Of a DNA stretch of 24,000 nucleotides, positions 7,268 through 24,000 are shown piece by piece; within the stretch, counting starts at the first letter, position 1, and each line of letters starts with the position of its first letter. Under the pieces are notes generated by a model. The model was not told where the DNA came from. It did no database searches and worked only from the letters and a program-made list of their open reading frames with translations. The position numbers were made by a program, and so were the translations under genes. Source of the DNA: Aestuariimicrobium soli (lineage in GTDB: Bacteria; Actinomycetota; Actinomycetes; Propionibacteriales; Propionibacteriaceae); assembly GCF_051192575.1 (NCBI RefSeq), contig NZ_JBPJSQ010000002.1:68029-92028 (forward strand). The letters are read 5' to 3'.

Positions 7268-7941
7268 ACCTCTTCTCGCAGGCCATCACGTGGCTCACCG
7301 ACATCGCCCATTGGCGGGGCGCCGCTGGCATTCCCACGCGGCTGGGGCAGCACCTGGCCGTGACCGCGGTGGCGGTGCTGATCGCCGCCGTGATCGCGCT
7401 TCCGCTGGGCGTCTGGATCGGCCACACCCGTCGCGGTTCGGCCTTGATCGGCGGCCTGGTCGGCGGCGCCCGCGCGATTCCCACCCTGGGCCTGCTGACC
7501 CTGTTCGGACTGTGGTGGGGCATCGGGCTCGGGGCGCCCGTGGCGGCGCTGGTCGTGCTGGCCATTCCCTCGCTGCTGGCCGGTGCCTACTCGGGTGTGC
7601 AGAGTGTCGACCCGGCGCTGCCGCGTGCGGCCAAGGCCATCGGCATGACCCCGCTGCAGGTGATCGGCCGGGTCGAGGTGCCCCTGGCACTGCCGGTGAT
7701 CATCGGTGGCCTGCGCGCCGCGACCCTCCAGGTGGTCGCCACGGCGACCCTGGCCGCGTACACCTCCGACACGGGGCTCGGGCGCTACCTGTTCGCGGGC
7801 CTCAAGACCCGCGACTACGCGCAGATGCTCGGTGGAGCGTTGCTGGTGCTCGTCCTCACCCTTGTTCTCGAACTGCTGCTGGCAGCCTGCCAGCGACTCG
7901 TCACCCAACGGGTGACCCACCCCGAAAGGATCCGCCCATGA
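7264..7941 (+). CDS. ABC transporter permease (second membrane subunit)
   Basis: C-terminal 225 aa of ORF 6616..7941, starting at ATG 7264 (ATGA overlap). It reads MNLFSQAITWLTD... and the EAA-like loop is LPRAAKAIGMTPLQVIGRVEVPLALPVIIGGLR. The part of the ORF upstream of 7264 is Arg/Gly/Pro-rich and overlaps the first permease. Confidence 0.85.
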   Translation: MNLFSQAITWLTDIAHWRGAAGIPTRLGQHLAVTAVAVLIAAVIALPLGVWIGHTRRGSALIGGLVGGARAIPTLGLLTLFGLWWGIGLGAPVAALVVLAIPSLLAGAYSGVQSVDPALPRAAKAIGMTPLQVIGRVEVPLALPVIIGGLRAATLQVVATATLAAYTSDTGLGRYLFAGLKTRDYAQMLGGALLVLVLTLVLELLLAACQRLVTQRVTHPERIRP

Positions 7942-8858
7942 CCACCGTTCCCCCTCTCGCCCGCCGTTCGCTGTTCGCGCTCGCGGGGGTGGCCGCCCTG
8001 GCCGCCTGTGGCTCCCAGGACCCGCTCGGGCAAAGCTCCTCGTCCGGTTCGGGTGGTTCGGCCGCCCTCGTGATCGGGTCGCAGGACTACTACTCCAACG
8101 AGATCATCGCCGAGATCTACGCTCAGGCTCTCGAGGGCGCCGGGCGCACGGTGCGTCGCGACTTCCGCACCGGCCAGCGCGAGGCCTACGTTCCCGACAT
8201 CGAGCAGGGGCGCATCGACCTGTTCCCCGAGTACAGCGGCCCGCTGCTGCAGTACTGGGTGAAGGACACCAAGGCCCGCCTCGCCGACGACGTCTACGCG
8301 GCGCTGCAGAAGGCGACCCCCGACGGGCTGCGGGTGCTCGACCAGTCGCCGGCCACCGACCAGGACTCCTACACCGTCACCAAGGAGTTCGCCGACAAGT
8401 GGGGGCTGACCACCATTGACGACTTGGCGAAGGTGACCGACCCGATGACCATGGGAGGCAACTCCGAGGGCGAATCGCGCCCCAACGGGCCGAAGGGATT
8501 GAAGGCCACCTACGGGGTCACGGTCGGATACAAGCCGATCGAAGACAGCGGCGGCCCGCTGACCGTCAAGGCCCTCAAGGACGGCGACATCCAGCTCGCG
8601 ATCATCTACACCGCCGACCCCACGATCGCCGCCAACGGGTTGGTCTCGCTGACCGACACCAAGGGCCTGTTCCTCGCCTCACACGTCGTGCCGGTCGCCT
8701 CGAAGAACGTGGACGAGGCCGCCGCCGCGGTGATCAACAAGATCTCGGCGGCGATGACCCCCGAAGACCTGATCGGGCTCAACGGCCGCTCGGTGAAGGA
8801 GGAACTGCCCGCGGCCACCATCGCGAAGGACTGGTTGGCGAGCAAGAAGCTCAGCTGA
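7938..8858 (+). CDS. Glycine betaine/osmoprotectant ABC transporter substrate-binding lipoprotein (OpuAC/OpuCC family)
   Basis: C-terminal 306 aa of ORF 7290..8858, starting at ATG 7938 (ATGA overlap). Signal peptide plus lipobox ALAGVAALAAC-GS. Family-typical GSQDYYSNEIIAEIYAQALE and IDLFPEYSGPLLQYW. Confidence 0.85.
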   Translation: MTTVPPLARRSLFALAGVAALAACGSQDPLGQSSSSGSGGSAALVIGSQDYYSNEIIAEIYAQALEGAGRTVRRDFRTGQREAYVPDIEQGRIDLFPEYSGPLLQYWVKDTKARLADDVYAALQKATPDGLRVLDQSPATDQDSYTVTKEFADKWGLTTIDDLAKVTDPMTMGGNSEGESRPNGPKGLKATYGVTVGYKPIEDSGGPLTVKALKDGDIQLAIIYTADPTIAANGLVSLTDTKGLFLASHVVPVASKNVDEAAAAVINKISAAMTPEDLIGLNGRSVKEELPAATIAKDWLASKKLS

Positions 8859-8873
8859 GGGCTGCGGCTCAGC
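8854..8873. terminator. Short hairpin between convergent gene ends (stem gctgag/ctcagc, 8-nt loop)
   Basis: The 6-bp stem arms contain the two stop codons (TGA 8856-8858; complement of tca 8869-8871). No U-tract, so function is uncertain. Confidence 0.2.
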
Positions 8874-9435
8874 CGGGCAGCAGGTAGGCGCCCGAGGCAA
8901 CGGCGTCACGCACCACGGCCAGCGTCTGCTGCGGGGTATTCGCCGACGTGTCGATCACGCACCGCTCGAGTTGACCCAGTTCGGCGAACTGGTCCCACAT
9001 CGACAGCACGGGGTCGGCATCGGTGAGCGCGTCGGGGCCGGTGCGCTGCTGCGCGCGGCGCAGGGTCTCGTCCCGGGCTGGCCGCAGCACCACATAGTGC
9101 AGTCTCGGGCTGAGGTCTGGTGCCGGGCCCGAGGCGTCGGGTGCGCCATCGGTGAAGTGATGCAGCATCCACGGGCCGACGACGCCGTCGACCACGGTGG
9201 TGAAGCCACCCTGGGCGTAGGCCCACGCGGCTTGCCGCACGGCGACCATCACGGTCTGGTTCTGCGCATCGGACTCCGCCCGGTAGGGAGTGATGGACCC
9301 CGACACGATGAATCGCCAGAAGTCATCGGAGTGCAGGTGGACGGCCCGGGGCCGGATGGTCGACGCCAGCGCATGCGCCGCCGTCGACTTGCCCGCACCG
9401 GGGGGTCCACTGATCAGGATCACATCGGCCACCAT
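8869..9435 (-). CDS. Small P-loop NTPase / AAA-type kinase-like protein
   Basis: 188-aa ORF with Walker A ILISGPPGAGKST near the N-terminus. No further specific motif recognised. Confidence 0.7.
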   Translation of the reverse strand: MVADVILISGPPGAGKSTAAHALASTIRPRAVHLHSDDFWRFIVSGSITPYRAESDAQNQTVMVAVRQAAWAYAQGGFTTVVDGVVGPWMLHHFTDGAPDASGPAPDLSPRLHYVVLRPARDETLRRAQQRTGPDALTDADPVLSMWDQFAELGQLERCVIDTSANTPQQTLAVVRDAVASGAYLLPG

Positions 9436-9463
9436 GACCCCACGCTACTCGCCCCCAGCCGGC

Positions 9464-9479
9464 CCGAACAGGTGTTCGG
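9464..9479. promoter_or_regulatory. Perfect 7-bp inverted repeat (ccgaaca-gg-tgttcgg) in the divergent intergenic region
   Basis: Read directly from the sequence. It lies 29 nt from the P-loop gene start and 88 nt from the ATPase start. It is a candidate operator only. Confidence 0.25.
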
Positions 9480-9566
9480 TGCCCCCGCTCGCCTCGCGCG
9501 AAGCCGTCGCCGCTACGGTGAACACGAGTGCACGACCCCACGGAGCCACCGCCCTAGGAGAGCCGC

Positions 9567-12338
9567 ATGACCACGCCTGAGCTCGACCCCGTGAGCGCCA
9601 CCTCGTCCGCTGTCCTGGAGGCTTGGCACAGCGACGAGCAGCAGGGGCTCACCTCGGACGAAGCCGCCTCACGGCTGGCCAGCCACGGCCCCAACGAGCT
9701 GCGCCCCCAGGCGCAGGAGCCGTGGTGGCGCAAGCTGCTGCGACAGTTCCAGGACCCGCTGGTCTACCTGCTGTTCGTGGCGATGGCGATCTCGCTCGCG
9801 GCCTGGGCGGTCGAGGGTGCCCACGGCGTGCCCATCGACGTGGTGGTCATCCTCGCGATCCTGCTGGCCAACGCGGCCATCGGACTCAGCCAGGAGGCCA
9901 AGGCCGAGAACGCCGTCGCGGCGTTGTCGCGCATGACGCGCGCGTCGTCCACCGTGGTGCGCGACGGCAGGCAGAAGACGGTGCCCTCGGGCGAACTGGT
10001 GCCCGGTGACGTGCTGGTGCTCGCCGAGGGCGACGCCGTCGGCGCCGACGCGCGGCTGCTGAGCGCCACCGCCCTGAAGGTGCAGGAGTCGTCGCTGACC
10101 GGTGAGTCCGAGGCGGTCACGAAGCGTCCCGACCCGATCGAGGGCGAGACCGCGCTGGGCGACCGGACGAACATGGTCTTCAAGGGGACCGCCGTGGTGC
10201 AGGGCGTCGGGCGGGCCGTCGTCACCTCGACCGGCATGGGCACCCAGATGGGGACGATCGCCACGCTGCTCGACTCCACCGAGGCGCAGGAGACCCCGCT
10301 CACCCGCGAGATCGACAAGGTCTCGAAGATGCTGGGCGGTCTGGTGATCGCCATCGCGATCCTCACCATGGGCGCGCTGCTGGTCGTCAACGGCGTACAC
10401 GACCCGCAGGACCTGGTCGACACGCTGCTGATCGGCGTGTCGCTGGCGGTCGCGGCGGTGCCCGAGGGGATGCCGGCGATCCTGTCGCTGGTGCTGGCCG
10501 TCGGGGTGCAGGCCTTGTCGCGGCGCAATGCGGTGATGAAGAACCTGCACTCGGTCGAGACGCTGGGGTCGGCCAGCGTGATCTGCTCCGACAAGACCGG
10601 CACGCTGACCCGCAACGAGATGACCCTGCACACGGTGGTCACGGCCCACGGACGCACCGATCTGTCCGGCGTCGGCTACGCGCCGACCGGTGAGGTCGAC
10701 ACCACGTCGTCGGAGGTGGCTCTCGAGGGGGCGCGGCTGGCCGTCTTCGGCGGCGCCGTGGCCAACAACTCCCAGCTCGAGCAGAACTCCGACGGCGAGT
10801 GGACGATCGTCGGCGACCCCACGGAGGCGGCCTTCCTGGTGGCGTGGCCCAAGCTCGCCAACGAGAAGGACCCCGCCGCGCTCCCCCGCCTCGGCGAGGT
10901 GCCGTTCAGTTCCGACCGCAAGATGATGTCGGTCGGTGTCGAGCGTGAGGAGGGCAACCGGCTCTACAGCAAGGGTGCCCCGGACGTGCTGCTCGTCCAC
11001 TGTGACTCCGAGTGGGTCGACGGCGAGATCGTGCCCCTGGACGACGAGGGTCGCGCGCGGATCGCCGCCGTCGTCGAGGACCTGTCGGGCGAGGGCTACC
11101 GCACGTTGGGCATCGCGTTCCGCCAGATCGACGACGATGACGACGTCGTGGACGAGGACGACGAGGAGGGGCTGACCTTCGTCGGAGTGGCGGGCATCAT
11201 CGACCCGCCGCGCGAGGAGGTCTCGGCCGCCATCGCCGAGGCGCACGGCGCCGGCATCCGCACCGTGATGATCACCGGTGACCACCCGGTCACCGCAGCC
11301 CGAATCGCCTCCGACCTCGGCATCGCCGACAGCCCGCGCGCCATGACCGGCCTCGAGCTCGACGAGTTGGACGAGGAGGGCTTCCGCCGGGCGACCCGCG
11401 AGGTGAACGTGTACGCCCGGGTGGCGCCGGAGCACAAGCTCAGGATTGTGGACGCGCTGCAGGCCGACGGCCAGGTGGTGGCGATGACGGGCGACGGGGT
11501 GAATGACGCGCCGGCGCTGAAGTCGTCCGACATCGGGGTGGCCATGGGCATCACCGGCACCGAGGTGACCAAGGAGGCGGCCACGATGGTGCTGGCGGAC
11601 GACAACTACGCCACCATCGTCACGGCGGTGCGGTTGGGTCGCGGGGTGTTCGACAACATCCGCAAGTTCCTGCGCTACATGCTCAGCTCGAACATGGGCG
11701 AGGTGGTCGCCATCTTTTTCGGCGTGGTGCTGGCCGGCGTGTTCGGGCTCACCGATGGCTCGGGCGGGATCGTGCTGCCGTTGCTCGCCACGCAGATCCT
11801 CTGGGTGAACCTGGTCACCGACTCGGCGCCGGCGTTGGCGATGGGCGTGGACGAGCCCGATCCCGACGTGATGCAGCGCCGCCCGCGCAACCTGAACGAA
11901 CCCATCATCGACCGGGCCATGTGGATGCGGGTGCTGTTCATCGGCCTGGTGATGGGGTTCTCGATGCTCGTGACCATCGACATCTTCCTGCCCGGCGGAC
12001 TGGTCGAGGGCCACGACTCCCTCGAGGTGTCGCGCACCGCTGGGTTCACGACGCTGGTGGTGGCGCAGCTGTTCAATGCACTCAACTCGCGGGCGGCCGA
12101 CGCCTCGGCGTTCTCGCGGCTGTTCACCAACAGGTGGCTGTGGGGGGCGATCGCGCTGACCCTGCTGCTGCAGATCGCGGTGGTGCACGTGCCGTTCATG
12201 CAAACCGCGTTCGGCACCCGGCCGCTCGACCTGGAGCACTGGCTGATCGCCCTCGCGATGGGCTCGGTGGTGCTGTGGGCGGAGGAGCTGGTGAAGCTGG
12301 TGCGGCGGTTGGTGCACCGAGGACGAGCCGCCGCCTGA
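9567..12338 (+). CDS. Cation-transporting P-type ATPase (type II, Ca2+/Mg2+-ATPase-like)
   Basis: 923 aa. N-terminal cation-ATPase domain, TGES, phosphorylation site ICSDKTGTLT, MITGDH, hinge TGDGVNDAPALK and about 10 hydrophobic segments. AGGAGA lies 6 nt before the ATG. Confidence 0.95.
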   Translation: MTTPELDPVSATSSAVLEAWHSDEQQGLTSDEAASRLASHGPNELRPQAQEPWWRKLLRQFQDPLVYLLFVAMAISLAAWAVEGAHGVPIDVVVILAILLANAAIGLSQEAKAENAVAALSRMTRASSTVVRDGRQKTVPSGELVPGDVLVLAEGDAVGADARLLSATALKVQESSLTGESEAVTKRPDPIEGETALGDRTNMVFKGTAVVQGVGRAVVTSTGMGTQMGTIATLLDSTEAQETPLTREIDKVSKMLGGLVIAIAILTMGALLVVNGVHDPQDLVDTLLIGVSLAVAAVPEGMPAILSLVLAVGVQALSRRNAVMKNLHSVETLGSASVICSDKTGTLTRNEMTLHTVVTAHGRTDLSGVGYAPTGEVDTTSSEVALEGARLAVFGGAVANNSQLEQNSDGEWTIVGDPTEAAFLVAWPKLANEKDPAALPRLGEVPFSSDRKMMSVGVEREEGNRLYSKGAPDVLLVHCDSEWVDGEIVPLDDEGRARIAAVVEDLSGEGYRTLGIAFRQIDDDDDVVDEDDEEGLTFVGVAGIIDPPREEVSAAIAEAHGAGIRTVMITGDHPVTAARIASDLGIADSPRAMTGLELDELDEEGFRRATREVNVYARVAPEHKLRIVDALQADGQVVAMTGDGVNDAPALKSSDIGVAMGITGTEVTKEAATMVLADDNYATIVTAVRLGRGVFDNIRKFLRYMLSSNMGEVVAIFFGVVLAGVFGLTDGSGGIVLPLLATQILWVNLVTDSAPALAMGVDEPDPDVMQRRPRNLNEPIIDRAMWMRVLFIGLVMGFSMLVTIDIFLPGGLVEGHDSLEVSRTAGFTTLVVAQLFNALNSRAADASAFSRLFTNRWLWGAIALTLLLQIAVVHVPFMQTAFGTRPLDLEHWLIALAMGSVVLWAEELVKLVRRLVHRGRAAA

Positions 12339-12368
12339 GCTGGGGGTTGCCGAGCGGGGGGCTCAGGC
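12333..12368. terminator. Hairpin between convergent gene ends (stem gcctgagc/gctcaggc, 20-nt G-rich loop)
   Basis: Perfect 8-bp stem whose arms contain both stop codons (TGA 12336-12338; complement of tca 12363-12365). No U-tract. Confidence 0.2.
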
Positions 12369-13619
12369 CGGGTCGGCGGCTGCCCGCAGCTGGACGATGG
12401 CGTCGACCAGGGCGGCCGCGGTCTGCTGCTTGGTGCCGCTCGCCCGGCCGACGACGGTGCCTCCCGACCCGAGGATGACCATTGCGTTGTCGGACGATTC
12501 GAAGCCCTGATGCCAGCCGACGGCGTTGACGGCGAGCAGGTCACAACCCTTGCGCTCGAGCTTGCGGCGTCCCAGGTCGAGCAGCTGCTCCTCGCTGTCG
12601 GCGGTCTCGGCGGCGAAGCCGACGATCACCTGGGCTGCGCTCCCCTGGTCTGAGGCGCGTCGTTCGACGAGCCCGCGCAGGATGTCGGGGTTCTCGATGA
12701 GCGACAAGGTGAGCTCAGGCGTGCCGACGTCTTCCTTGCGCAGCTTGCCCTGGCCGATGTCGGCCGGGCGGTAGTCGGCGACGGCGGCGCACATCACCAG
12801 CACGTCGGAGGCGTCGGAGACCTCGCGCATGGCGGCGTCGAGCTCGGCCGCCGAACCCACGGGAACCACGGTGACCCCACTCGCGCCGTCGAGCACGGCC
12901 GCCTCAATGTTGGCGGCCACGAGCGTGACCTCGGCTCCGCGTCGGGCGGCCTCGGCAGCCACCGCCACCCCTTGGCGTCCGCTCGAACGGTTGCCGAGGT
13001 AGCGCACGGGATCGAGCGGTTCGCGGGTGCCGCCGGCGCTGACCACGACCTTGACCCCGGCCAGGTCGCCTCGTCCGTTCTCATCAGCGACGGGCTCGCC
13101 CACGAGCTCGAGGGCGCGGCGGAAGATCTCCTCGGGCTCGCTCATGCGTCCCGGCCCGGAGTCGGACCCGGTCAGTCGTCCGCTCTCGGGCCCGACCACG
13201 TGCACGCCGCGGTCGCGCAGGGTCTCGACGTTGTGCTGGGTCGCGGGGTGCTGCCACATCTCGGTGTGCATGGCGGGCGCCACCAGCACGGGCGCGCGGG
13301 TCGCGAGCAGGGTGGTGCCGAGCAGGTCGTCGGCGAGTCCGGCGGCCATCCGCGCCAGGGTGTTCGCCGTGGCCGGGGCGACGACGACCATGTCGGCCTG
13401 CTGTCCGAGGGCGACGTGGCGCACCTGGGCGACGTCGTCGTGCACGGACGTGGTGACGGGGTTGCGGCTGATGGCCTCCCAGGTCGACAGCCCCACGAAC
13501 TTGAGCGAGTCGTCGGTGGGGGCGACGTGCACCTCGTGGCCGCCCTCGACGAACAGTCGGGCGAGTGAGACCACCTTGTAGGCGGCGATGCCTCCGCAGA
13601 CTCCCAGCAGGATGTTCAC
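12363..13619 (-). CDS. coaBC: Bifunctional phosphopantothenoylcysteine decarboxylase / phosphopantothenate-cysteine ligase
   Basis: ORF 12363..13694. The N-terminal flavoprotein domain is VNILLGVCGGIAAYKV...VAPATANTLARMAAG. The C-terminal CoaB domain is VSAGGTREPLDPVRYLGNRSSGRQG. Start set to GTG 13619 (418 aa) because the longer ORF would run into the divergent NRDE gene start at 13678. Confidence 0.9.
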   Translation of the reverse strand: MNILLGVCGGIAAYKVVSLARLFVEGGHEVHVAPTDDSLKFVGLSTWEAISRNPVTTSVHDDVAQVRHVALGQQADMVVVAPATANTLARMAAGLADDLLGTTLLATRAPVLVAPAMHTEMWQHPATQHNVETLRDRGVHVVGPESGRLTGSDSGPGRMSEPEEIFRRALELVGEPVADENGRGDLAGVKVVVSAGGTREPLDPVRYLGNRSSGRQGVAVAAEAARRGAEVTLVAANIEAAVLDGASGVTVVPVGSAAELDAAMREVSDASDVLVMCAAVADYRPADIGQGKLRKEDVGTPELTLSLIENPDILRGLVERRASDQGSAAQVIVGFAAETADSEEQLLDLGRRKLERKGCDLLAVNAVGWHQGFESSDNAMVILGSGGTVVGRASGTKQQTAAALVDAIVQLRAAADPA

Positions 13620-13664
13620 CGAGCCATGGTCCCACGCTGCCCGCAGCCCTGTTCGCTGCGTGGC

Positions 13665-13670
13665 TAGCCT
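13665..13670 (+). promoter_or_regulatory. Candidate -10 hexamer (TAGCCT, TANNNT) 7 nt upstream of ATG 13678; possible leaderless transcript
   Basis: Read directly from the sequence. No SD-like purine run lies between it and the ATG. Confidence 0.2.
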
Positions 13671-13677
13671 TGCGCGC

Positions 13678-14439
13678 ATGTGCACCGTCGTCATCCACGT
13701 GCCCGAGACCGCGGACGAGGAGGTGCGCCTGCTCGCCGTCAGGGACGAGGACCCCTCCCGACTCTGGGACCCGCCCGGCTACTGGTGGCCGGAGCTCCCC
13801 GGGGTGGTCGGCGTGCGCGACCGTCTGGCCGGTGGGGCGTGGCTGGCGGCCAATCCCGGCGAGGGCAGGCTGGCGGTGGTGCTCAACCGGGCCGACGTGT
13901 TCTCGGGCGGGCTGCCGGCGGGTCCGAACGGGCTGGCCTCTCGCGGCTCACTGGTGCTGGAGGCGGCTGTCGGGTCAGCGGTGCCGGAGGTGCCGCGCAC
14001 GGCCGGGTTCAACCTCGTCGAGGTGGCCGGCGGGGTGGCCACCGTCACCAGCTGGGACGGTGCCACGCTCACCCGCACGGTGCTCGCCCCCGGTGTGCAC
14101 ATGGTGGCCCACGACGACGTGGACGACCCGCGGACCGCCCGCATCGAGGCCTGGCTGCCGGCCTTCAGGGCCGCGGCGGAGGCGGGGGGCTCGTCCGAGG
14201 TCGACTGGCGCCGTCGGTGGCTGGACGTGCTGGAGGGCACCGCGGCGCTGCCGGTGGACGACGACCGCGCCATCATTCGCGACAACCGCAGCGACGGCTA
14301 CCCGACCCTTTCGCTGCTGGTCTGCCTGGCGGAGATCCGGCCGGGGATCGCGGGTGGGGACGAGCGGGTGCGGCTCTCGTCCGCGACGTTGGACGAGCCC
14401 GCCGTCTGGGAGCACCCCGACTTTCAGACCGCCACCTGA
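13678..14439 (+). CDS. NRDE-family (TANGO2-like, DUF833) protein
   Basis: C-terminal 253 aa of ORF 13588..14439, starting at MCTVVIHVPE (the Met-Cys start typical of this family). Then LLAVRDEDPSR (NRDE-type motif), GGAWLAAN, AVVLNR and ASRGSLV. Confidence 0.8.
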   Translation: MCTVVIHVPETADEEVRLLAVRDEDPSRLWDPPGYWWPELPGVVGVRDRLAGGAWLAANPGEGRLAVVLNRADVFSGGLPAGPNGLASRGSLVLEAAVGSAVPEVPRTAGFNLVEVAGGVATVTSWDGATLTRTVLAPGVHMVAHDDVDDPRTARIEAWLPAFRAAAEAGGSSEVDWRRRWLDVLEGTAALPVDDDRAIIRDNRSDGYPTLSLLVCLAEIRPGIAGGDERVRLSSATLDEPAVWEHPDFQTAT

Positions 14440-14460
14440 GCTGCCCGCAGGGAGTTCGGT

Positions 14461-14466
14461 TAGTCT
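14461..14466 (+). promoter_or_regulatory. Candidate -10 hexamer (TAGTCT, TANNNT) 7 nt upstream of ATG 14474; possible leaderless transcript
   Basis: Same geometry as at 13665. No SD between the hexamer and the ATG. Confidence 0.2.
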
Positions 14467-14473
14467 CCAGACC

Positions 14474-15652
14474 ATGGACAACGACGTTCTGGACGGGTTG
14501 GTCACCCCGCTCGTCCCTTCCTTGGCCACGAGCCTGTCCACACAGTTCAATGTGTTCGAGGTCATGCACCACGGCACACACGAGAAGCAACTCTCGAATG
14601 TGTTTGCGTGGCTGCTGCGATCGGACGCGAGCCACGAACTCGGTGACACCTTCCAGACGATCCTGATGGGCCGGGTGAACAAGCACCTGCCCGACGACGA
14701 GCAGCTCCCCTTGAGCGGCTATCGCATCAGCCAAGAGGTCGACACCGCCAAGGGCTCCGAGAGCGGCAGGGACATCGCCGACATCCTCATGGTCTCCGAG
14801 CACGCCAAGGTGGTGGTGGAGAACTACGAGAGTTCCGACGGGCACGGGCACAGCTTCGACGGTTACCTGGAGCACGGCACAGCGGACGGAGGCCGCGGCG
14901 TCGTGGTGCTGATGTGCCGGCGACACGAGCCGCACCGTCAACGCGAAGGCTGGGAGGACGCTGCCGTCGTCACCTACGCCGATGTCCTCGGCGACCTTCG
15001 GACACACCTGAAGGGCGATCCGGCATGGGTCTCGGCTCATCCACGTCAGAGCACGTTCATCAACGAGTTGATCGATTACTTCACGGAGGTACCCGGAGCC
15101 ATGACCGATCAGGACAGAGTCGACTTCATCTCCGCCATGTGCGACGCCGGTGAATGGAACCGCTTCGCGTTGAACAAGCAGGAGCAGGTGGCGCAGGAGT
15201 TCGCGGACCTGGTTGCCGAGCACGCCAAGCGACAGTTCATCGAGGCGAAGAGCGCCCTCCAGACCATCAAGAATTCGCTACGAAGCTTCGCCCGCAGCAC
15301 CCTCATTCCACAGGTGGCGGAGGCCGTCACCATCGGGCGCATCTCCACTGCCAGTGTGGGCTTCCAAGGCCAGTGGCAATGGTGCATCTCGCTGCCTCGG
15401 GAAGACGGCCAGCCCACACTGTTCCTGGTGTTCGGGCCGACCGCCGCCGCCGAACATGGCCAGTTTGCGCGTCCTCCTGAAGATCCGGACTACAGCCGGG
15501 TGTTCGTCATGCGGTCGGCCGGACGCGACGCGCGCGACGTGATGCACCAGACCAGGGTGGGTCTGGACGAGGTCCTGGCCGGACTGGGCCCAGACGACGT
15601 CCGGCTCAGGGATGCAGTGATCGAGGTCATGCGGGCCGACAGCAGCGCCTGA
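14474..15652 (+). CDS. PD-(D/E)xK nuclease-superfamily protein (PDDEXK_4-like) with a variant E-N-Y in place of E-x-K
   Basis: C-terminal 392 aa of ORF 13565..15652, starting at ATG 14474. The N-terminal FNVFEVMHHGTHEKQLSNVFAWLLRSDASHELGDTF matches the family pattern (FN-F-E..-HE--hS--hAWLL-----H-LGD-F). The core is ISQEVD...GRDIADILMVSEHAKVVVENY, with D at 14771-14773 and 14780-14782 and ENY at 14819-14827. Confidence 0.65.
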   Translation: MDNDVLDGLVTPLVPSLATSLSTQFNVFEVMHHGTHEKQLSNVFAWLLRSDASHELGDTFQTILMGRVNKHLPDDEQLPLSGYRISQEVDTAKGSESGRDIADILMVSEHAKVVVENYESSDGHGHSFDGYLEHGTADGGRGVVVLMCRRHEPHRQREGWEDAAVVTYADVLGDLRTHLKGDPAWVSAHPRQSTFINELIDYFTEVPGAMTDQDRVDFISAMCDAGEWNRFALNKQEQVAQEFADLVAEHAKRQFIEAKSALQTIKNSLRSFARSTLIPQVAEAVTIGRISTASVGFQGQWQWCISLPREDGQPTLFLVFGPTAAAEHGQFARPPEDPDYSRVFVMRSAGRDARDVMHQTRVGLDEVLAGLGPDDVRLRDAVIEVMRADSSA

Positions 15653-15723
15653 CGACTTTGCAGGCACTCGGAGTCAGTCCGCAATTCCGGGATCGTCCCC
15701 CTCCCGCGTTCACCTCCTGAACA

Positions 15724-15757
15724 TGCCCTTGCCCCTGTTCGGTCGAGGGCAAAGGCA
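15724..15757. terminator. Hairpin in the 157-bp convergent spacer (tgcccttgccc / gggcaaaggca, 11-bp stem with one mismatch, 12-nt loop)
   Basis: Read directly from the sequence. It lies between the PD-(D/E)xK gene stop (15652) and the helicase gene stop (15810). No clear U-tract on either strand. Confidence 0.3.
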
Positions 15758-15809
15758 CGGTCAGCAGGTAAACACCCAGCGGTGTCGACCTCGACGTGTC
15801 CGCTCGCAA

Positions 15810-18800
15810 TCAACCGAGCGCTGAGCCGAGCCCCACACCCAGCGAACTGAGCAGGGCTGCGGCTGCCCCGCGGGAGAGAATCTCGTGGTCTCGCTGGTTC
15901 CGGTAACCCCGCAGGCATCCGTAGCAGGATGTCTCCGGCCCACAGTCGCACGTCGTGACCCGCCGTAGGGCCGCCTCGAGAACATCCTCCAGCCTCTCCT
16001 CGATCCGCAGCACGTTCCCACCACCGCCTGGAACCGTGTCGAAGAGCACCAACGACCTGGTGACAGGCCCCGTGGGCGACAAGGTCCCCCCGATGTCGTC
16101 TCGGGAGATCTGCAAGGTGTCCGACGCTGCCTCGAGCAAAGCGTAGAGCACGGACTTCCAGACGGCTTCCTCCCGAAAGATCTGGTTAGGCCTGACGTCC
16201 AGCCAGAGAAGGTCAGTCTCGTATGGATGAGCGAGGTCGACCAGATCCAAGGGGCCTGTGCAGTCGTGCCCCGCCCGGAGGAGGTGCTGATGCTTGGTCG
16301 GACGTCGAGTCCCGACGTTGGTCAGGGCCGTGCCCCAGCCGCACCACCGACAGACCAAGTAGCCACTCTCTGAAGGCCCATCGGCGATGGAGATGAGGCG
16401 ACCCCTGGGACCCACAAACGCCTCGATGCTCCCGCCGGGGAGTTCGAACGAACGTGAGCGGGAGACATCCGAGAGCTTGACCACGTGCGTGGCGCCCCCC
16501 CAAGCTCCGCGTGGGGGCCGGGAGCCGGGTCGCTTCGGGTCGGGCGCCGCCACGAAGCCGAACTCGGGGATGATCAGCGTCCGTGCGGCCGCGGCAGCCA
16601 CGTCGCCGCACGTAGGACACTGCGGCTCGACGTCGCCGAAGGATTCCCAGTACTGACCGCACCGCCGACAGACCCGGTAGTTCAGCCCGACGAGCTCCTT
16701 TCCCGGGAGTCGGTAGATGCCGCGAGACATCCACTCCAAGCCCCCCGCGACCAACGACGCGTCCGGGGCGTACTCGTGGATCGCTTGCGACAGGTCACGC
16801 GACAGGTCGAGCTTGGCCCCGAGGAAGTGCTCGGCAGCGCTGAAGTCAGTCCGGAGTTCCACCGAATCGACCGGGAAGCCGTACTTGGGAATCACGTTGT
16901 GGTTCGCGAGGTGGCCCAGGAGGTCCCGGCCGCGGAGCGTCTTCAGGACGCCCTCGTACCGGTCGGCCAGAAGGAAGTTCCGCGCGGCCACCGCCTCGTC
17001 CTGGATACCACGCAGGGTCGAGACGTCCGCAGCGAGCCCCTGCCGCACTTCCTCCAGCAGATCTAGCAGCACCGGCACCCATTCGCCGGAGTCGACTCCG
17101 ATGGCCTTCTGGACTCCCACCGGCAGAACGCGACGCAGCGAGGTCTGGACTTCAGCAGGCACGGGGTTCAGGAAGGTGCGGACGGCCGCGACCGGCGGCT
17201 CATCCACCCCGTCACCGATGAAGAACTCGCCTGCCTTCCTGGAGATGCCGTGGAGGCTTTCCAAGTACCAGCGGAAAAACGCCGCCAGCGCTACGGAGTG
17301 GGCGTGTCGCCTGTCGATGCGGTCATTGTCGAGAGGCACGTAGGGAGCCGGGATGCGACCCGCCATCATCGCTTCCGGAGCTGCGTACTGGGTCAGGTCG
17401 TGCGACCGTCGCTGTGCGTACGTGACCACGAGGGCAGCAGCGCCCGCACGACGGCCGGCTCGCCCAGCACGCTGGACGTAGTTTGCTGTGGTGGGCGGCA
17501 TGTTCCGCAACATCACCGACTGCAGCTCGCCCACGTCGACCCCCAGTTCGAACGTGGTCGAGCACGACAGTGCGTTGATCTCGCCCCGGATGAAGTCCTG
17601 CTGAATGCGAGCCGCCTCAGTGTTGCGCCACTGCGCGGTGTGCTCACGTGCCGTCAAAGGGACTGGGAGCATCGACCGGTAGATGGCCCGGTAGTGATCG
17701 CGGTCTTCGTCCGCCGGCGGGGGAACGAGAGTGTGTAACTCCCCCGGGCACCCCAACGCCGGGCAGACTCCCGCCACCGACACCGGAGCCACGCGCTGGC
17801 ACGTCGAGCATTGATGGACGGGTGTGCTTGCATCGACGAGCGCGAACCGGAGCATGCGGTGATCGACCTGGCTGACGGCACCCAACCCCTTTGGGGTACT
17901 GGTGACCAACCAGTCGACCTCGGTTCCCGGGTCGGTGAGGAAGCGCCAGACACCGTTGAGCACCCCGACGGGGTCGGTGTCGCTACCCATCGCCGCCAGC
18001 ACGCGGTTCACGTAGTCGACACGCCGGTTGCTTCCGCGCCCAGGGAGCCATGAGAGCACCTTTCGCTTCGGCTCCGGCCCGCTGAGGCGCGCGTAGATGG
18101 GCCCCAGTCGCGGGGCGAAGATCTCATGGTTGGGGGGGACGTCGTCCGGCATCGTCACCGCGCCTTGGAGCCTCAACGTCCTGACCAGCTCCGCGACGAA
18201 GTCCCAAGCCTGTTCGGTCGTGAGGCCCAGGCGCAGGAGTGGCTCCGGGAGCTTCCACCCGGGCTCGCGCCGCAGGGTGACGCGGACCAATCCGACCCCC
18301 TCGAGCGACTGGCGATCGTCCATGCTCGCAGCTTCGGCCATGATCCACGGAGCGATCATCCTCTCCTGCCCCGCCGCAGACATGCCAGGACTGAACACCT
18401 GCACCGCATCCGCGCTCCGCCGAACGTGGTACCGGGCGTCAGCGACGTTCACCCCAGAGGTGGCGGCACCAGCCGACTCCAGCCCTTGAATGATCAGACG
18501 TCGGCGCTGAAGCCGACCGTACGAATCCTCCAAGTACGGCGCGAAGTAGGCAGCCGCCTGCCGGCTGTCGCTGAACATCAGCAGCTTGCGTCCTTCGCCG
18601 GGCCGAGCGACGTCCCGAGGGTCCTCGCTGGCGGGGAGACTCTGGTACAGAGAGGTCGTGATGACCGCGCCAGCGGCGTCCGCGCCCGTCTCGAAGGCAC
18701 GGACGGTGCCGGCTCCCCGGGCGCCACACACCAGACAACCGACGAGCTCCTGGCCACGCTGCTTGAGCTTGCGAACACGCCGGAGCGTCGAGCTGCCGCA

Positions 18801-20495
18801 ACCGGGGTCAGCGCAGCAGGTGGCATCGGCCGTGGTGAGCACGCCGCACTGGGTGCACAGCTTGCCCTCAGCGCCGTTCACGGCGCCGCCGTCTTCTGCC
18901 AAAGCCTCCTCATCCTCGTCGACCCGATCCAGACCGTCATCAAGCACCAGCCACGACGTCGGGGCGTCCGCCTTGCGGGGCGCGAGGCGCAGACGCCTGT
19001 CGCGCGACTCAAGGACGCCCAGCAGGTGAACCGCGCCGCACCGCTTGCAGGCCCCCACCTCGAAAACTGGGGCAGCGCAGTCACGGCACAGCTCGTGTCG
19101 AGCGAGATGCACGTGGGGGCCAGACGGAGAGAGGCAGGTGAACGCTCCCTCCGTGGCGCGCAGGAAGAGGTGGTACCGGGACGAAAGAGCGGACGACCCG
19201 TCAGGCCCTCTCAGCGCGCTGGCGACAGCCACCAGCGCGACGAGCCCCTCCTGCCGACGGGGGTCGTCTGGGAAGACCCGTGCCGGCAGGGCGTCGAAGG
19301 GCTGTGGTCCGACGCTCAGCAGCCGCTTGAGCTGAACGAGACTGCCCTCGTGGGCCAGGGCAGAGCGAGCATCCGGTGCCGTGAAGTCGTGGCTGCGAGC
19401 CAGCGCTACAACCTCGTCGTCCACGGCAGTGCTCTGCGCCAGCCGAAGATAGTCCTCGGCAGTCAACGGGCCCCACGTCGGCCCGGTCGGAGTCTGGCGG
19501 CGCTCGGCTGTGATCAAGTCCTGCCGCGCGGAGTCGTCGTGCACCCACTCGAAGGGCACTCCGAAGAGACGGGACGCGAACTCGGTGACCGACGACGGAT
19601 CGGTGTCGGCGCCCACAGTGGCCGAGGTGGCGATGCACTGCAGCGGCCGGTCAGGTGCCACGCGATCCCTCAGGCGACGCACGAGCATGGCGATTTCGGC
19701 GCCCTGGGTTCCGTCGTAGACGTGGGCCTCATCGATCACCAGGAAGCGCCAGGTGGCGTCGCCGTCGCTGGGGAACAGGCCCATGTCCTGCGGGCGGAGG
19801 AGCAGGTACTCCAGCATCGCGTAGTTGGTCAGCAGCAGATGGGGCGGCGTCTTGCGCATCTCCTGACGACTGAGCAACTCGTTGCTCAGGAGGCGTTCAC
19901 CAGGGTTGAGCTCTTCGAAACGCTCGCTCGCGCGACGCGGGTCGTCCTCGGTGTCTCCGGTGTAGCGACCGAAGGTGATGTGCGGAGTGTCGGCGAGCAT
20001 GGCCCGGAGCCTCTTCATCTGGTCATTGGCCAAGGCGTTCATCGGGTAGAGGAGCAATGCTCGCACGCCAGGACCCAAGGCGCCCCGCTCGTTCTCGGCG
20101 GCCAAACTGTCCAGAATCGGCATGAGGAATGACTCGGTCTTCCCGGACCCCGTACCGGTGGCCACCACGACGTTGCGGCCATCCCTGACCTTCCGGATGG
20201 CGGCCTCCTGATGCCGGTACAGCGGCCGGTCGAGCGGAAGCGCCGGGCTGGCCAAACCTGCGAAGCCGGCGGACAGCAACCCAGAGTCAATGAGCTCGCG
20301 GATGCTGGACCCGGTCGCGTAGGGCGGAGTGGCCTCCAGATAGGGCCCTTTGTCGAGAGATGGCGAGGTGTCAATGGCGCTCGCCAGCGCTGCGGCGATC
20401 TTCGGGTCACGAGCGGCGATGAGCGAGCCCAGATACCTGCGGTAGGACGCCTTGATCTCCGCAGAGGTCCTCACCGGGTCGGAGTGCTCGGTCAT
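15810..20495 (-). CDS. Giant SF2 DEAH-box helicase fused to a C-terminal DUF1998/MrfA-type Zn-binding domain (DruE-like, 1561 aa)
   Basis: ORF 15810..21335 trimmed to ATG 20495 (MTEHSDPVRTSAEIKASYRRYLG). This start forms an ATGA overlap with the upstream stop, and the 280 residues before it are R/P/G-rich and overlap the upstream gene. Motif I is ATGTGSGKT (20139-20162), II is VIDEAH (19722-19739), III is SAT (19617-19625) and VI is QRAGRAGRR (17448-17474). RecA2 onset is KLLMFSDSRQAAAYF (about 18543-18587). The C-terminal Cys cluster is TCDCGPETSCYGCLRGYRNQRDH (Cys codons 15915-15950). Confidence 0.85.
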   Translation of the reverse strand: MTEHSDPVRTSAEIKASYRRYLGSLIAARDPKIAAALASAIDTSPSLDKGPYLEATPPYATGSSIRELIDSGLLSAGFAGLASPALPLDRPLYRHQEAAIRKVRDGRNVVVATGTGSGKTESFLMPILDSLAAENERGALGPGVRALLLYPMNALANDQMKRLRAMLADTPHITFGRYTGDTEDDPRRASERFEELNPGERLLSNELLSRQEMRKTPPHLLLTNYAMLEYLLLRPQDMGLFPSDGDATWRFLVIDEAHVYDGTQGAEIAMLVRRLRDRVAPDRPLQCIATSATVGADTDPSSVTEFASRLFGVPFEWVHDDSARQDLITAERRQTPTGPTWGPLTAEDYLRLAQSTAVDDEVVALARSHDFTAPDARSALAHEGSLVQLKRLLSVGPQPFDALPARVFPDDPRRQEGLVALVAVASALRGPDGSSALSSRYHLFLRATEGAFTCLSPSGPHVHLARHELCRDCAAPVFEVGACKRCGAVHLLGVLESRDRRLRLAPRKADAPTSWLVLDDGLDRVDEDEEALAEDGGAVNGAEGKLCTQCGVLTTADATCCADPGCGSSTLRRVRKLKQRGQELVGCLVCGARGAGTVRAFETGADAAGAVITTSLYQSLPASEDPRDVARPGEGRKLLMFSDSRQAAAYFAPYLEDSYGRLQRRRLIIQGLESAGAATSGVNVADARYHVRRSADAVQVFSPGMSAAGQERMIAPWIMAEAASMDDRQSLEGVGLVRVTLRREPGWKLPEPLLRLGLTTEQAWDFVAELVRTLRLQGAVTMPDDVPPNHEIFAPRLGPIYARLSGPEPKRKVLSWLPGRGSNRRVDYVNRVLAAMGSDTDPVGVLNGVWRFLTDPGTEVDWLVTSTPKGLGAVSQVDHRMLRFALVDASTPVHQCSTCQRVAPVSVAGVCPALGCPGELHTLVPPPADEDRDHYRAIYRSMLPVPLTAREHTAQWRNTEAARIQQDFIRGEINALSCSTTFELGVDVGELQSVMLRNMPPTTANYVQRAGRAGRRAGAAALVVTYAQRRSHDLTQYAAPEAMMAGRIPAPYVPLDNDRIDRRHAHSVALAAFFRWYLESLHGISRKAGEFFIGDGVDEPPVAAVRTFLNPVPAEVQTSLRRVLPVGVQKAIGVDSGEWVPVLLDLLEEVRQGLAADVSTLRGIQDEAVAARNFLLADRYEGVLKTLRGRDLLGHLANHNVIPKYGFPVDSVELRTDFSAAEHFLGAKLDLSRDLSQAIHEYAPDASLVAGGLEWMSRGIYRLPGKELVGLNYRVCRRCGQYWESFGDVEPQCPTCGDVAAAAARTLIIPEFGFVAAPDPKRPGSRPPRGAWGGATHVVKLSDVSRSRSFELPGGSIEAFVGPRGRLISIADGPSESGYLVCRWCGWGTALTNVGTRRPTKHQHLLRAGHDCTGPLDLVDLAHPYETDLLWLDVRPNQIFREEAVWKSVLYALLEAASDTLQISRDDIGGTLSPTGPVTRSLVLFDTVPGGGGNVLRIEERLEDVLEAALRRVTTCDCGPETSCYGCLRGYRNQRDHEILSRGAAAALLSSLGVGLGSALG

Positions 20496-23400
20496 TTGTC
20501 CTCCTGGCTCGCGCTCGACTGCTCCGCAGCCTGCAGCAGTTCGGCCACAATCAGGTCGATCGTGACGAGGTCGGGCGCGATGCGCGCCAGATCGGCCCAG
20601 AGTCGCCCTTGCTGTGCCACCAGCTGGCGCGCCTGGGCATCGCCGCGCGCGACGCGCCGTGCCATCCAGGCGAGGCTCAGGGACAGGGCCGGATAGCACC
20701 GCCACCCATCTGACCGGGTGGGATGGCATCGGGCTGCGACGGCGTCGACACCTGCCAAGTCCCCCACGGACTTGAGGTAGGCGCGGAGCAGCTGGAGGCA
20801 CCGGGGGCCGTTTTCCTGGAGCCCCGCAGATGCGTCGCGCCGTCGATCCAGCAGGTTCAGAGACGCCTGCACTCGCGTGTCGCCATCGACAAGGCCTTGG
20901 GGAACCAGCCTCAACTGATTCCGGAAGTCCAGTTGCGCGGTCGAGCCAAGCGCCAGATACCGATCGGCCGCTGTGTCGAAACGGCCCAGACCTGGCCACG
21001 GGTCGTTCCCACGCAGGAGGCTGTCCACACCGTCTCCGCACACCACCCGGGCGTTGGCAGCAGTGTCCAAACCCCGCCTGACATCGTCCACCAGTCCTGG
21101 AGCGGTCAGGAGTGCCGCTGGTAACGCTCCTGCGCGGGTCCACGCCACGCTGCCCCGAGACGGCAACGCCGTCGGCGTCCATGCGAGCCCGGAACGGATG
21201 ATCGCCTCGGGCACGCGGTCGGCTTCGATGCCGCTCGAGTCCAAGGCGAGGAGTGAGGAGACAGGATCCTGGGTGAGCACGTTGCGGCAGGCCTTCCCCA
21301 CCTCGGCGAGGCGCTCGCCCATCAGCCCGAGCCACGGCAGCCGGCCAGTGACCGCCCAGACCCTCGACAGGTCAGCAATATCGGCGGGGAGTGGCCCCGC
21401 GCCTGCCAGCCACCGGGAGAGCGATGTCTCCTCGGCGTCCTCGCTCGAAAGCCAACCCGGCGCACTGAGCAGCCAGGCCTTCTGAGGGGCCGGCCATGCC
21501 GGAACCGATGCCGGAGCCCACGGATCATCGACCCGGACGGTCACGACGACGGGTCCCGCGTCGCGCAGCTCTTCAGGGAGCTCGACCTGTCCATGCCGGA
21601 CCTCGAGTCGCGTCCCGCCTCGCCAAGGTGCGACCACGGGGTACACCAGCGCGACGAGTCCCTCCACGTCGACGCTGTCGACGAGCTCGAGGATGTCACC
21701 GGTCAGCTTCACTTCCGAGTACAGCCTTCGCGGGCTCACCTGACTCACGACGAGGAGGCCTGCTTCGTCGAGTGACAGTCGTGCGCGGGGGTGAGCTGCC
21801 AGCGTGTCGCCCACCTGAGCAAGGTTGAATCGATAGACGCCGTCGCGGCTGCGGCCGAAGGTCACAAGCTCCTGGACGCAACGGTCACCCACTAGGACGT
21901 GCAGGGTTGGATCACCCACCGCGTCCAGGTCGATCGTCAGCGTCCCGCCCAGCTCACGAAGGTCCTCGGCATACAGCGGTACCGGCCGGACGCCCGCCGT
22001 CGTGGAGCGTTCACTCGACTGGTAGGACATCGACATGTGAGGAGGTCGCACTACGGCTCGAAGAACCGTGTGGTGCGCGGTCAGTGTCACCTGCTGCTCT
22101 GTCTCGTGCCCCGCGAGCTCGAACGACGACTGCTCGGCCTCGACGCCAGGAGGGAGGCTGAGACGGATCGTCGCGGGCACCAGCCCATCGGGGGCGATCC
22201 GACGCCACGGGGGCTGAGACGCCATGCGCACTCCCTCGGCCAGCACCAGGTCGCGAGAGATCCCTCGCCCCCAAGGGCCGCGCACCCGGATTCGGTACGT
22301 GCCCAACAACGGTCGAGGAACGCCCGACCACAGTCCTTCGCGGAGGTCGTCGCCGGCGTGAAGCATGCGGTTGTCAACGAGCACCCGCCCGCCAGCATCA
22401 GTGATCGTCAGGGACCAGCTGCTGTCAGTGCTAGCAGCGGATGGCAGCTCGATCTGGGGAACCTGCCCAAAGACTGGCCCGCCGCGGTGCAGGAGGCCCT
22501 GGATCGGTTCCCCGGCGGCGATCCGCACGGACGAAACCCTGCGCACACTGCGTGGACGCTCGCATCTGGAGGACCTGACCATGCTGGCGCCCCGGAGGTC
22601 GAGGAGTCGCAGGGTCCAGCCGCTCCAGCCCGGGGGAAGTGCGCCCTCGGCCAGGACCACTGCCTCGCCGACAACCACTAGGTCATCAGGGCCGCCCGGA
22701 AAGAGCAACCACACCGGAAAGCCCGGAAGAGGCAACCCCGGGAGGAGCTGCCGGCCCTCCTCGGAGAATGCGAGGAGGGGGTCCTTGTCGTCGACGACCG
22801 GCACGGTCATCGTGAGGTCGGGGCGCCGTTGGAGGGCAGCCGTCACTGCTCGGACTGGACCGATGACTGGCACATCCGTCGGCGGGGCCGGCTCTCCCGG
22901 CCAGGCCGCCTCGCTGTGCACGTGTTCCGACTGGGTGCCGACCGTCACCGTCCACGTTGCCTGGCCGACCTCGTCCACGGGCGGCAGTCTCAGGAGTGGC
23001 CCGCGACCATAGGGATCGAGCACCAAGCCTGGCCGCTCTGCCTCGTGTCCGTCGGAGTGGCCCCTTGGCCGCCTCTCGCTGATCCCACCAGCCTGTCGAA
23101 GGGCCACAGCGGCGACGCGGAACCTGTCCGGCAACGGCACTTCCTCGCCCGTACCACCGGCCGCGACCACGTCGAGCAGCTCAAACACGCGGTCGCTGAC
23201 GTCGATGGCGAAGTCGCCGCCGTAGCGCAGGAACCGCTCGACAGGCTTGTCGATGTTGAACAACTTTCCCTCGGCGGCCTTGCTGGCCGCCCACGCCACG
23301 AACTCGTCAGGCGTGATCCCCTCGTCTCGGCTGCGGCGTTCACCGACGAGTTTGAAGTAGTCCGCAAGGCAGTGGGTGGGAATCCCCGAATGCATGAGGA

Positions 23401-23980
23401 TCGGGCCGACGAATCGGGCTCCAGAATCCTCAATCTCGCCGAAGTCCGGAAGTCCCAGCGCTCGCAGGTTCTCCAAGAAGGCAGTTCCCCACTCCTGCTG
23501 GAAGCTCTGATCCCCACGGATCCCAAGCATGCCCGTCAACTTGGGCCAGAACGTGCCGTGAGAGTAGTGGTGGGTGGCGATGCTCACTGTCGACATCACG
23601 TGAACCGCTGGCCAGCGGCGCAACAACCAGCTGCGATCCCGCCCTCGTGCCGCAAGGAACTTACCTCCCAGTACCTCGAGGGCCTGTTCGGCGTGTTCGG
23701 CCTTGGCCAGATCCTCGGCGACCAGCGACACGACGCCCAGGCGCCGTCCCCACCCTTCCTGTCTCAGGCGTAGTAGCTCATTAGGGGTGACGACCCTTTC
23801 CTGCGTGTCCGCAGATCCCACGGTCAATGCACCCCCAATTCGCGCGGCGCGACGATGCGCCGATGTCGCTCTCAACGGTATCAACATAGACCGTTTGGCG
23901 GTTCGCACCGCCACCAGCCTGTACCTCACGTCGTGGTCGGAATCGGGGGCAGCCACCATTTCCTCCCGCAGACCGGTCAC
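20492..23980 (-). CDS. Large (about 1155-1162 aa) protein of unknown function, translationally coupled to the helicase; candidate DruH-like partner
   Basis: Single uninterrupted minus-strand ORF with protein-like composition throughout, e.g. HHYSHGTFWPKLTGMLGIRGDQSFQQEWGTAFLENLRALGLPDFGEIEDSGARFVGPILMHSGIPTHCLADYFKLVGERR. I recognise no catalytic or nucleotide-binding motif. The start is ambiguous: GTG 23980 sits 3 nt after an in-frame TGA, and ATG 23959 is preceded by GGGAGG with only a 2-nt spacer. Confidence 0.75.
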   Translation of the reverse strand: MTGLREEMVAAPDSDHDVRYRLVAVRTAKRSMLIPLRATSAHRRAARIGGALTVGSADTQERVVTPNELLRLRQEGWGRRLGVVSLVAEDLAKAEHAEQALEVLGGKFLAARGRDRSWLLRRWPAVHVMSTVSIATHHYSHGTFWPKLTGMLGIRGDQSFQQEWGTAFLENLRALGLPDFGEIEDSGARFVGPILMHSGIPTHCLADYFKLVGERRSRDEGITPDEFVAWAASKAAEGKLFNIDKPVERFLRYGGDFAIDVSDRVFELLDVVAAGGTGEEVPLPDRFRVAAVALRQAGGISERRPRGHSDGHEAERPGLVLDPYGRGPLLRLPPVDEVGQATWTVTVGTQSEHVHSEAAWPGEPAPPTDVPVIGPVRAVTAALQRRPDLTMTVPVVDDKDPLLAFSEEGRQLLPGLPLPGFPVWLLFPGGPDDLVVVGEAVVLAEGALPPGWSGWTLRLLDLRGASMVRSSRCERPRSVRRVSSVRIAAGEPIQGLLHRGGPVFGQVPQIELPSAASTDSSWSLTITDAGGRVLVDNRMLHAGDDLREGLWSGVPRPLLGTYRIRVRGPWGRGISRDLVLAEGVRMASQPPWRRIAPDGLVPATIRLSLPPGVEAEQSSFELAGHETEQQVTLTAHHTVLRAVVRPPHMSMSYQSSERSTTAGVRPVPLYAEDLRELGGTLTIDLDAVGDPTLHVLVGDRCVQELVTFGRSRDGVYRFNLAQVGDTLAAHPRARLSLDEAGLLVVSQVSPRRLYSEVKLTGDILELVDSVDVEGLVALVYPVVAPWRGGTRLEVRHGQVELPEELRDAGPVVVTVRVDDPWAPASVPAWPAPQKAWLLSAPGWLSSEDAEETSLSRWLAGAGPLPADIADLSRVWAVTGRLPWLGLMGERLAEVGKACRNVLTQDPVSSLLALDSSGIEADRVPEAIIRSGLAWTPTALPSRGSVAWTRAGALPAALLTAPGLVDDVRRGLDTAANARVVCGDGVDSLLRGNDPWPGLGRFDTAADRYLALGSTAQLDFRNQLRLVPQGLVDGDTRVQASLNLLDRRRDASAGLQENGPRCLQLLRAYLKSVGDLAGVDAVAARCHPTRSDGWRCYPALSLSLAWMARRVARGDAQARQLVAQQGRLWADLARIAPDLVTIDLIVAELLQAAEQSSASQEDK

Positions 23981-24000
23981 TGATCATGGAGCACCGTTAC

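Follow-up and report, generated by a model that had tools for sequence, protein, structure and literature searches.

A long open reading frame beside a helicase gene in Aestuariimicrobium soli very probably encodes the DruH subunit of a compact type III Druantia system

What is the function of a protein of more than 1,000 residues that carries no recognisable domain and is encoded next to a helicase gene in the actinobacterium Aestuariimicrobium soli? The question was raised by a window of 24,000 nucleotides, the whole stretch of DNA analysed here (assembly GCF_051192575.1, contig NZ_JBPJSQ010000002.1, positions 68,029 to 92,028), for which a preliminary description made from the letters alone had reported a 1162-aa open reading frame (ORF) and had proposed that its product may act together with the helicase as its sensor or scaffold subunit. 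We found that the product is very probably DruH, the non-helicase partner of the helicase DruE in a type III Druantia system, an anti-phage system that here has two genes and is of the compact III-B kind, with the DruH gene co-transcribed with that of DruE and translationally coupled to it. The features of the two genes are as follows.

20492-23980, minus strand: maximal ORF, 1162 aa from GTG 23980 (ORF listing and translation).
20492..23827, minus strand: probable coding sequence of druH, stop included, for about 1111 aa (ORF, translation, start candidates and homolog N-termini).
15810..20495, minus strand: druE, encoding a 1561-aa DExH helicase of the YprA/MrfA family with a C-terminal MrfA Zn-binding (DUF1998) domain (PADLOC, Pfam).
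20492..20495, minus strand: ATGA in which the stop codon of druH overlaps the start codon of druE (sequence reading).
20499..20504, minus strand: GGAGGA Shine-Dalgarno sequence for druE, within the 3' end of druH (read directly from the sequence).

The locus was assigned to type III Druantia because both products are similar to a published pair from Mycolicibacterium smegmatis. DruH is 42% identical over about 90% of its length (E 1e-239) to the M. smegmatis homolog P0100, whose gene is followed, with a 17-bp overlap, by that of a 1667-aa helicase, and DruE is 61% identical over its full length to MSMEG_1254. MSMEG_1253 (DruH, 1132 aa) and MSMEG_1254 (DruE) were described as an overlapping pair of that layout (Li & He, Cell Insight 2026, PMC13316683). 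Extension of P0100 by 72 codons gives a protein of 1132 aa, in which the amino acid named in the paper is found at seven of the nine mutated positions. Since the helicase size, the 17-bp overlap and these seven residues agree with the paper, P0100 is, judged from the sequences, MSMEG_1253. The residues R864 and R865 mutated in PMC13316683 fall on E792 and E793 of P0100 at the 72-codon offset that fits the other seven, which could be a numbering or strain discrepancy.

In M. smegmatis, both MSMEG_1253 and MSMEG_1254 are required for phage defence and the two proteins bind each other; DruH alone is toxic and DruE neutralises this toxicity; and the system, which has a phage minor tail protein as its trigger, prevents phage DNA from circularising and replicating (PMC13316683). 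Alanine mutants of M. smegmatis DruH (MsDruH) at D240, R536 and D1108 lose defence (PMC13316683). The corresponding residues of the A. soli protein, in the numbering of the 1162-aa ORF, are D270, R565 and D1142, which are kept in 69-70, 63 and 70, respectively, of the 70 sequences in the family alignment. The two systems thus belong to the same sequence family, share the overlapping two-gene operon and the essential residues, are both actinobacterial, and in neither does DruE have an identified nuclease domain. They differ in that A. soli belongs to the Propionibacteriaceae, in the overlap (4 nt versus 17 nt) and in the length of DruE (1561 versus 1667 aa).

The helicase gene was recognised by the PADLOC models DruE1 (E 9e-177) and DruE3 (E 3e-163). 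Pfam placed DEAD, Helicase_C and MZB domains on its product, MZB at residues 1451-1528 of 1561; the protein ends right after MZB, and no PLD or Vsr nuclease domain was matched in the Pfam scan. A III-B branch of type III Druantia, with a compact DruE that usually lacks a nuclease domain, has been described (Bell et al., bioRxiv 2025.09.15.676423; Himpich et al., bioRxiv 2026.05.13.724758). The A. soli locus has two genes only and a 1561-aa DruE without PLD domains, and by the published description the subtype is probably III-B, a compact kind typical of Actinomycetota. The stop codon of druH shares the ATGA with the start codon of druE, and the Shine-Dalgarno sequence of druE lies within druH, from which druE reads as translationally coupled to druH. 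The proposal of a helicase partner was therefore supported by the coupled downstream DruE and by the orthology to M. smegmatis DruH. The preliminary description had placed the ORF upstream of the helicase, which holds in the transcriptional sense only, the helicase gene lying downstream of druH on the minus strand.

Hachiman (HamA nuclease and HamB helicase) and DISARM (DrmAB) likewise combine a defence helicase with a partner that is not a helicase and that regulates it; DrmA and DrmB of the latter share the helicase core and the DUF1998 domain with DruE. No sequence relation to DruH was found in either system. Unlike DruH, HamA has a known nuclease fold and about one quarter of the size, and DISARM depends on a methyltransferase and other genes as well.

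The pairing of the two genes is widely conserved. We compared 56 loci encoding DruH relatives, taking one genome per species and searching each with the window DruE by tblastn. Nearly all are from Actinomycetota. Among the 53 loci that have enough downstream sequence, DruE is encoded directly downstream on the same strand in 47 and behind a three-gene insert of 4.6-4.7 kb in three others. In 42 of 48 pairs druE is predicted to start before druH has ended, and in 34 of the 48 the two genes share exactly 4 nt. In Amycolatopsis mediterranei and M. smegmatis, druHE is located in defence-island-like surroundings: the former (L001, 2897-7910) keeps the druHE architecture with AIPR and a DUF87 ATPase nearby, and in the latter (L003, 866-7231 and 16448-18661) the pair is close to a 2121-aa HEPN/Swt1-DUF4011-AAA_11/12 protein and a UvrD-like helicase.

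Several variants of this arrangement were observed. In three loci of Streptosporangiaceae type (L039, 9281-14002; L043, 10276-14894; L047, 10276-14965), the three-gene cassette between druH and druE encodes proteins of 536 aa and 287 aa without Pfam matches and a 682-aa Hsp70-like ATPase fused to an NYN RNase domain; the first two of these genes are found downstream of druE, not between the pair, in L034. Possibly the cassette is a defence module, accessory or nested. In Actinomadura miaoliensis (L027, 10920-14952), a DruH-like gene is followed by two genes for helicases of the Schlafen-group-3/DUF2075 type. A metagenomic homolog (P0045, 1300 aa) carries a DEAD-box Pfam match and looks, from its sequence, as if DruH were read through into DruE, whether by a genuine fusion or by a frameshift or assembly artefact at the overlapping stop and start. 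The single loci outside Actinomycetota (L022, L048, L054 and L061) are metagenome-assembled genomes labelled Saccharibacteria, Limnocylindrus (which we take to be Chloroflexota), Acidobacteria (partial) and Bacillota (weak), and could reflect horizontal spread or binning errors.

The absence of any recognisable domain, reported in the preliminary description, was confirmed by every search: no match to DruH was found in Pfam (E<=1), PADLOC (E<=10) or NCBIfam (E<=1), or in PDB sequences searched with a profile of 70 DruH-family sequences. A PADLOC scan of eight of the most distant family representatives, in which a transitive link to the DruH models was sought, gave no matches. An AlphaFold2 model built on the 70-sequence alignment (mean predicted local distance difference test score, pLDDT, 88; predicted template modelling score 0.81) is helical over residues 15-245 (counted in the 1111-aa protein), has strands over 267-787 that make up about six sandwich modules, and is helical again over 798-1110. 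At this pLDDT, the model bears out the earlier guess of a helical N-terminus, a middle of beta-rich modules and a helical tail. The parts of the protein are listed below.

23078..23827, minus strand: N-terminal alpha-helical domain, model residues 1-250 (AlphaFold2 secondary structure, invariant columns).
23375..23392, minus strand: HSGIPT motif, among the most conserved blocks of the N-domain (family alignment).
21458..23035, minus strand: central array of about six predicted beta-sandwich, immunoglobulin (Ig)-like modules, model residues 265-790 (AlphaFold2 model).
22262..22282, minus strand: RGPWGRG loop, the family's most conserved motif, located in the fourth beta module (family alignment).
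20495..21442, minus strand: C-terminal alpha-helical domain, model residues 796-1111, holding the invariant D1142 (AlphaFold2 model, alignment).

Conservation is concentrated in a few of these blocks. The invariant polar residues of the N-domain are H197, R216, D260, R264, D270 and R286 (ORF numbering). Within HSGIPT, H197, G199, P201 and T202 are invariant, and this region was also selected automatically as the family-diagnostic pattern [YF][VL]G[RP]IL[ML]H[SAC]G. In the RGPWGRG loop, just ahead of which R565 lies, R567, G568, P569, G571 and R572 are invariant. The conserved-looking blocks quoted in the preliminary description (HSGIPT, RGPWGRG) rank with the best-conserved stretches of the family. 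By its AlphaFold2 model, the A. soli protein also matches the architecture of III-A DruH determined by cryo-electron microscopy, in which six Ig-like modules lie between an N-terminal and a C-terminal helical domain (bioRxiv 2026.05.12.722862, 2026.05.13.724313, PMC13192584).

We compared the family with the canonical YjiT-type DruH using full-length YjiT of Escherichia coli strain LS45 (III-A DruH, 1096 aa) and its 2114-aa DruE. E. coli YjiT matches 12 PADLOC DruH models, and most of the YjiT relatives listed carry PF27205, usually together with PF27201, many of them being named 'STY4851/ECs_5259 family'. Several results of this comparison and of the locus scan weigh against the assignment to DruH. 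None of the 12 PADLOC models matched the window protein or M. smegmatis DruH, NCBIfam gave no DruH or YjiT match to the window protein, and neither PF27205 nor PF27201 was found on the actinobacterial DruH homologs. An hhalign comparison of the 70-sequence alignment with a 32-sequence alignment of the YjiT family returned a probability of 0.4% for the whole alignments and no more than 3.5% for any single domain. As no sequence similarity to YjiT was detected, mechanistic details from E. coli and Pseudomonas, that is, the pocket for single-stranded DNA (ssDNA) and ATP, the exonuclease site of the N-domain and the contact of the C-domain with the DruE stalk, are not mappable residue by residue, and the three III-A studies themselves conflict on the role of DruH, which is an ssDNA binder in one, a nickase in another and an exonuclease in the third. 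The predicted interface residues R410 and E651 of MsDruH are unconserved in the family, being V and T in the window protein, a further difference from M. smegmatis. Four family members (L027, L031, L053 and L057) have no DruE neighbour within 7 kb downstream; such DruH-like genes may represent a partner swap or a decayed system.

A BLASTP comparison of the window DruH with full-length E. coli YjiT likewise gave noise only, and at the sequence level the actinobacterial and the YjiT-type DruH are two separate families. A caveat applies to the comparison with curated DruH sequences that had been suggested earlier: the curated PADLOC, NCBIfam and Pfam models for DruH or YjiT miss the family altogether.

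These results bring forward a possible, though in our judgement unlikely, alternative, namely that the window protein is a functional analogue and not a homolog of YjiT-type DruH, an independently recruited Ig-array protein with its own biochemistry and with nuclease-less DruE helicases as partners, for which the name DruH would reflect gene position only. Every sequence and profile test against the YjiT family failed, as this alternative predicts, and both models retrieve only generic Ig-array matches in Foldseek, those of the E. coli DruH model being of the same class as those of the window protein. An alignment of secondary-structure order was only weakly positive against shuffles (z 2.6 for the N-domain, 2.4 for the beta array and 0.5 for the C-domain) and was not used as evidence of homology. 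On the other hand, AlphaFold2 predicts helices for residues 1-258 of E. coli DruH, strands for 272-818 and helices again for 834-1095, so that the two proteins have similar lengths (about 1100 aa) and the same three-domain order with boundaries within about 15-35 residues of each other. Both are long proteins that lacked annotated domains until recently, encoded directly upstream of DruE, and the coupling to DruE is shared, although III-A DruE has about 2100 aa with two PLD nuclease domains and the A. soli DruE has none. Moreover, the lower identity of DruH than of DruE to the M. smegmatis pair (42% versus 61%) accords with the much faster evolution reported for DruH, which makes divergence from YjiT beyond detection plausible. 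It is unproven that the actinobacterial family is linked to YjiT-type DruH by descent.

When the DruH model was searched with Foldseek in PDB and BFVD, the only matches were generic tandem arrays of Ig or macroglobulin (MG) domains at a template modelling score (TM) of about 0.1, from alpha-2-macroglobulin, complement C3/C5, S-layer proteins and phage Ig-decorated proteins. Such matches to a predicted model convey a string of beta-sandwiches and nothing further. The top PDB matches, bacterial alpha-2-macroglobulins, complement C3/C5 and S-layer proteins, are what would be expected if the protein were a surface, adhesin-like or alpha-2-macroglobulin-like Ig protein without a role in defence that lies beside the helicase by chance. 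We consider this extremely improbable and effectively refuted: the TM of these matches is low, the N-terminus of DruH is hydrophilic and has no signal peptide, the pairing and overlap with DruE are kept in most loci, and the M. smegmatis ortholog is experimentally needed for phage defence. Membership in the MG-domain family of alpha-2-macroglobulin and complement was likewise rejected, the best TM being about 0.1 with a root-mean-square deviation above 20 A and the likeness being limited to tandem beta-sandwiches. The structure prediction and Foldseek search proposed in the preliminary description gave no confident match to a family unrelated to defence.

That the ORF is a chance open frame left untranslated, as might be feared in GC-rich DNA where spurious long ORFs are common (83 overlapping ORFs of at least 100 aa in this window), is already refuted by hundreds of full-length homologs of 35-79% identity with invariant motifs, together with the coding-like codon-position GC, the confident AlphaFold2 model and the annotation of the product in the source genome. 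A word-indexed search found 138 full-length homologs, and an exhaustive search (E<=1e-3) found relatives in at least 1560 representative clusters at 50% identity, nearly all of the named ones from Actinomycetota. Because homologs are this numerous and the GC content at the three codon positions (0.74/0.52/0.77) shows a coding-like pattern, the druH ORF is a real gene, present on the minus strand at 20492-23980 with 1162 codons for amino acids as first described.

The length of the protein itself is probably smaller than the 1162 aa given in that description. Codons 1 to about 51 of the ORF, which starts only 20 bases from the end of the window, are unconserved, and the closest homologs begin opposite TTG 23827 or GTG 23821. 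For these reasons the true start of DruH is probably about 51 codons into the ORF, and the resulting 1111 aa or so match the length typical of the family (1100-1115 aa). In the source genome the product is annotated as an Aestuariimicrobium soli hypothetical protein (P0001, 100% match) of 1079 aa starting at GTG 23731; look-ups of the genomic context of P0001 and P0002 by exact sequence gave no record. The stretch 5' of this start, encoded at 23731-23827, is conserved among relatives (VTPxELLxxRExxWxxRL), and its helix (model residues 15-30) is modelled with confidence. Since this first helix would be lost, the NCBI start is probably too short and truncates DruH.

How DruH may act can be outlined by analogy. 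III-A DruH has been reported as an ssDNA binder with which ATP competes, as a sensor of a phage protein with dimer-dependent nicking activity, and as a 3'-to-5' exonuclease (bioRxiv 2026.05.12.722862, 2026.05.13.724313, PMC13192584); in the exonuclease report, on a Pseudomonas III-A system, DruH's C-terminal domain docks on the DruE stalk and loads DruE onto forked DNA. By analogy with the YjiT-type DruH of E. coli and Pseudomonas, the Ig-like array and the N-domain of the A. soli protein would sense infection through a phage structural protein or through exposed ssDNA or forked DNA, and the C-terminal helical domain would, as in III-A, dock onto DruE and load or activate it on phage DNA. The DNA-damaging step is probably supplied by DruH, which is its likeliest source because the A. 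soli DruE is without a nuclease domain, so that any DNA cleavage must come from DruH or the host. The lack of a nuclease motif noted in the preliminary description does not exclude nuclease activity, since motif-less YjiT-type DruH proteins have been reported as nucleases. The polar cluster of the N-domain (H197, R216, D260, R264, D270, R286) is a candidate active site. Speculatively, DruH could trim single-stranded ends of the phage genome in the 3'-to-5' direction, which would explain the failed circularisation seen in M. smegmatis. It is a doubtful, though conceivable, extension of this scheme that the actinobacterial DruH is a separate, non-YjiT lineage that supplies the nuclease missing from III-B DruE, an undescribed site of H197, D260, D270 and R264 trimming the phage ends so that circularisation fails.

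DruH of type III Druantia is already known and has recently been characterised, and the A. soli protein adds another member. The assignment turns genes annotated as a hypothetical protein and a DEAD-box helicase into a defined anti-phage system, and it exposes an annotation gap, an actinobacterial DruH family of 1560 clusters without a model in PADLOC, Pfam or NCBIfam as searched. Because the models of these collections fail to recognise the family, tools that rely on existing DruH models will probably miss or mislabel such systems; a dedicated hidden Markov model (for example, from alignment A2) would close the gap. The family is also a natural comparison for the current debate over the role of DruH.

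The remaining genes of the window are housekeeping genes encoding an AlkZ-like glycosylase, dehydrogenases, a PadR regulator, an ABC/OpuAC transporter, a P-type ATPase and CoaBC, and small TANGO2-like and PDDEXK_4-like genes are located between CoaBC and druE. A scan of the window for promoters and terminators was uninformative. No tRNA was found in the window and no repeat boundary was seen there; the upstream border of druHE is located outside it. The GC content ranges over 0.64-0.73 in the window as a whole, with 0.64-0.69 in the druHE region (15001-24000) versus 0.67-0.73 in positions 1-15000, and GC at third codon positions is 0.77-0.82 in the druHE region versus 0.87-0.95 in the flanking housekeeping genes. 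These lower values suggest that druHE was horizontally acquired. The PDDEXK_4-like gene is a 392-aa ORF on the plus strand (14474-15652), convergent with druE, with a marginal PD-(D/E)XK match (E 1e-4), and is located in the part of the window with the lowest GC (0.644). We considered this gene and the TANGO2-like gene as parts of the system and rejected both, as neither recurs in any of the 56 related loci; since the neighbouring genes are not conserved with the druHE pair, the system is a two-gene unit, and the PDDEXK_4-like gene, never found beside druHE in those loci, is probably separate cargo of the same island.

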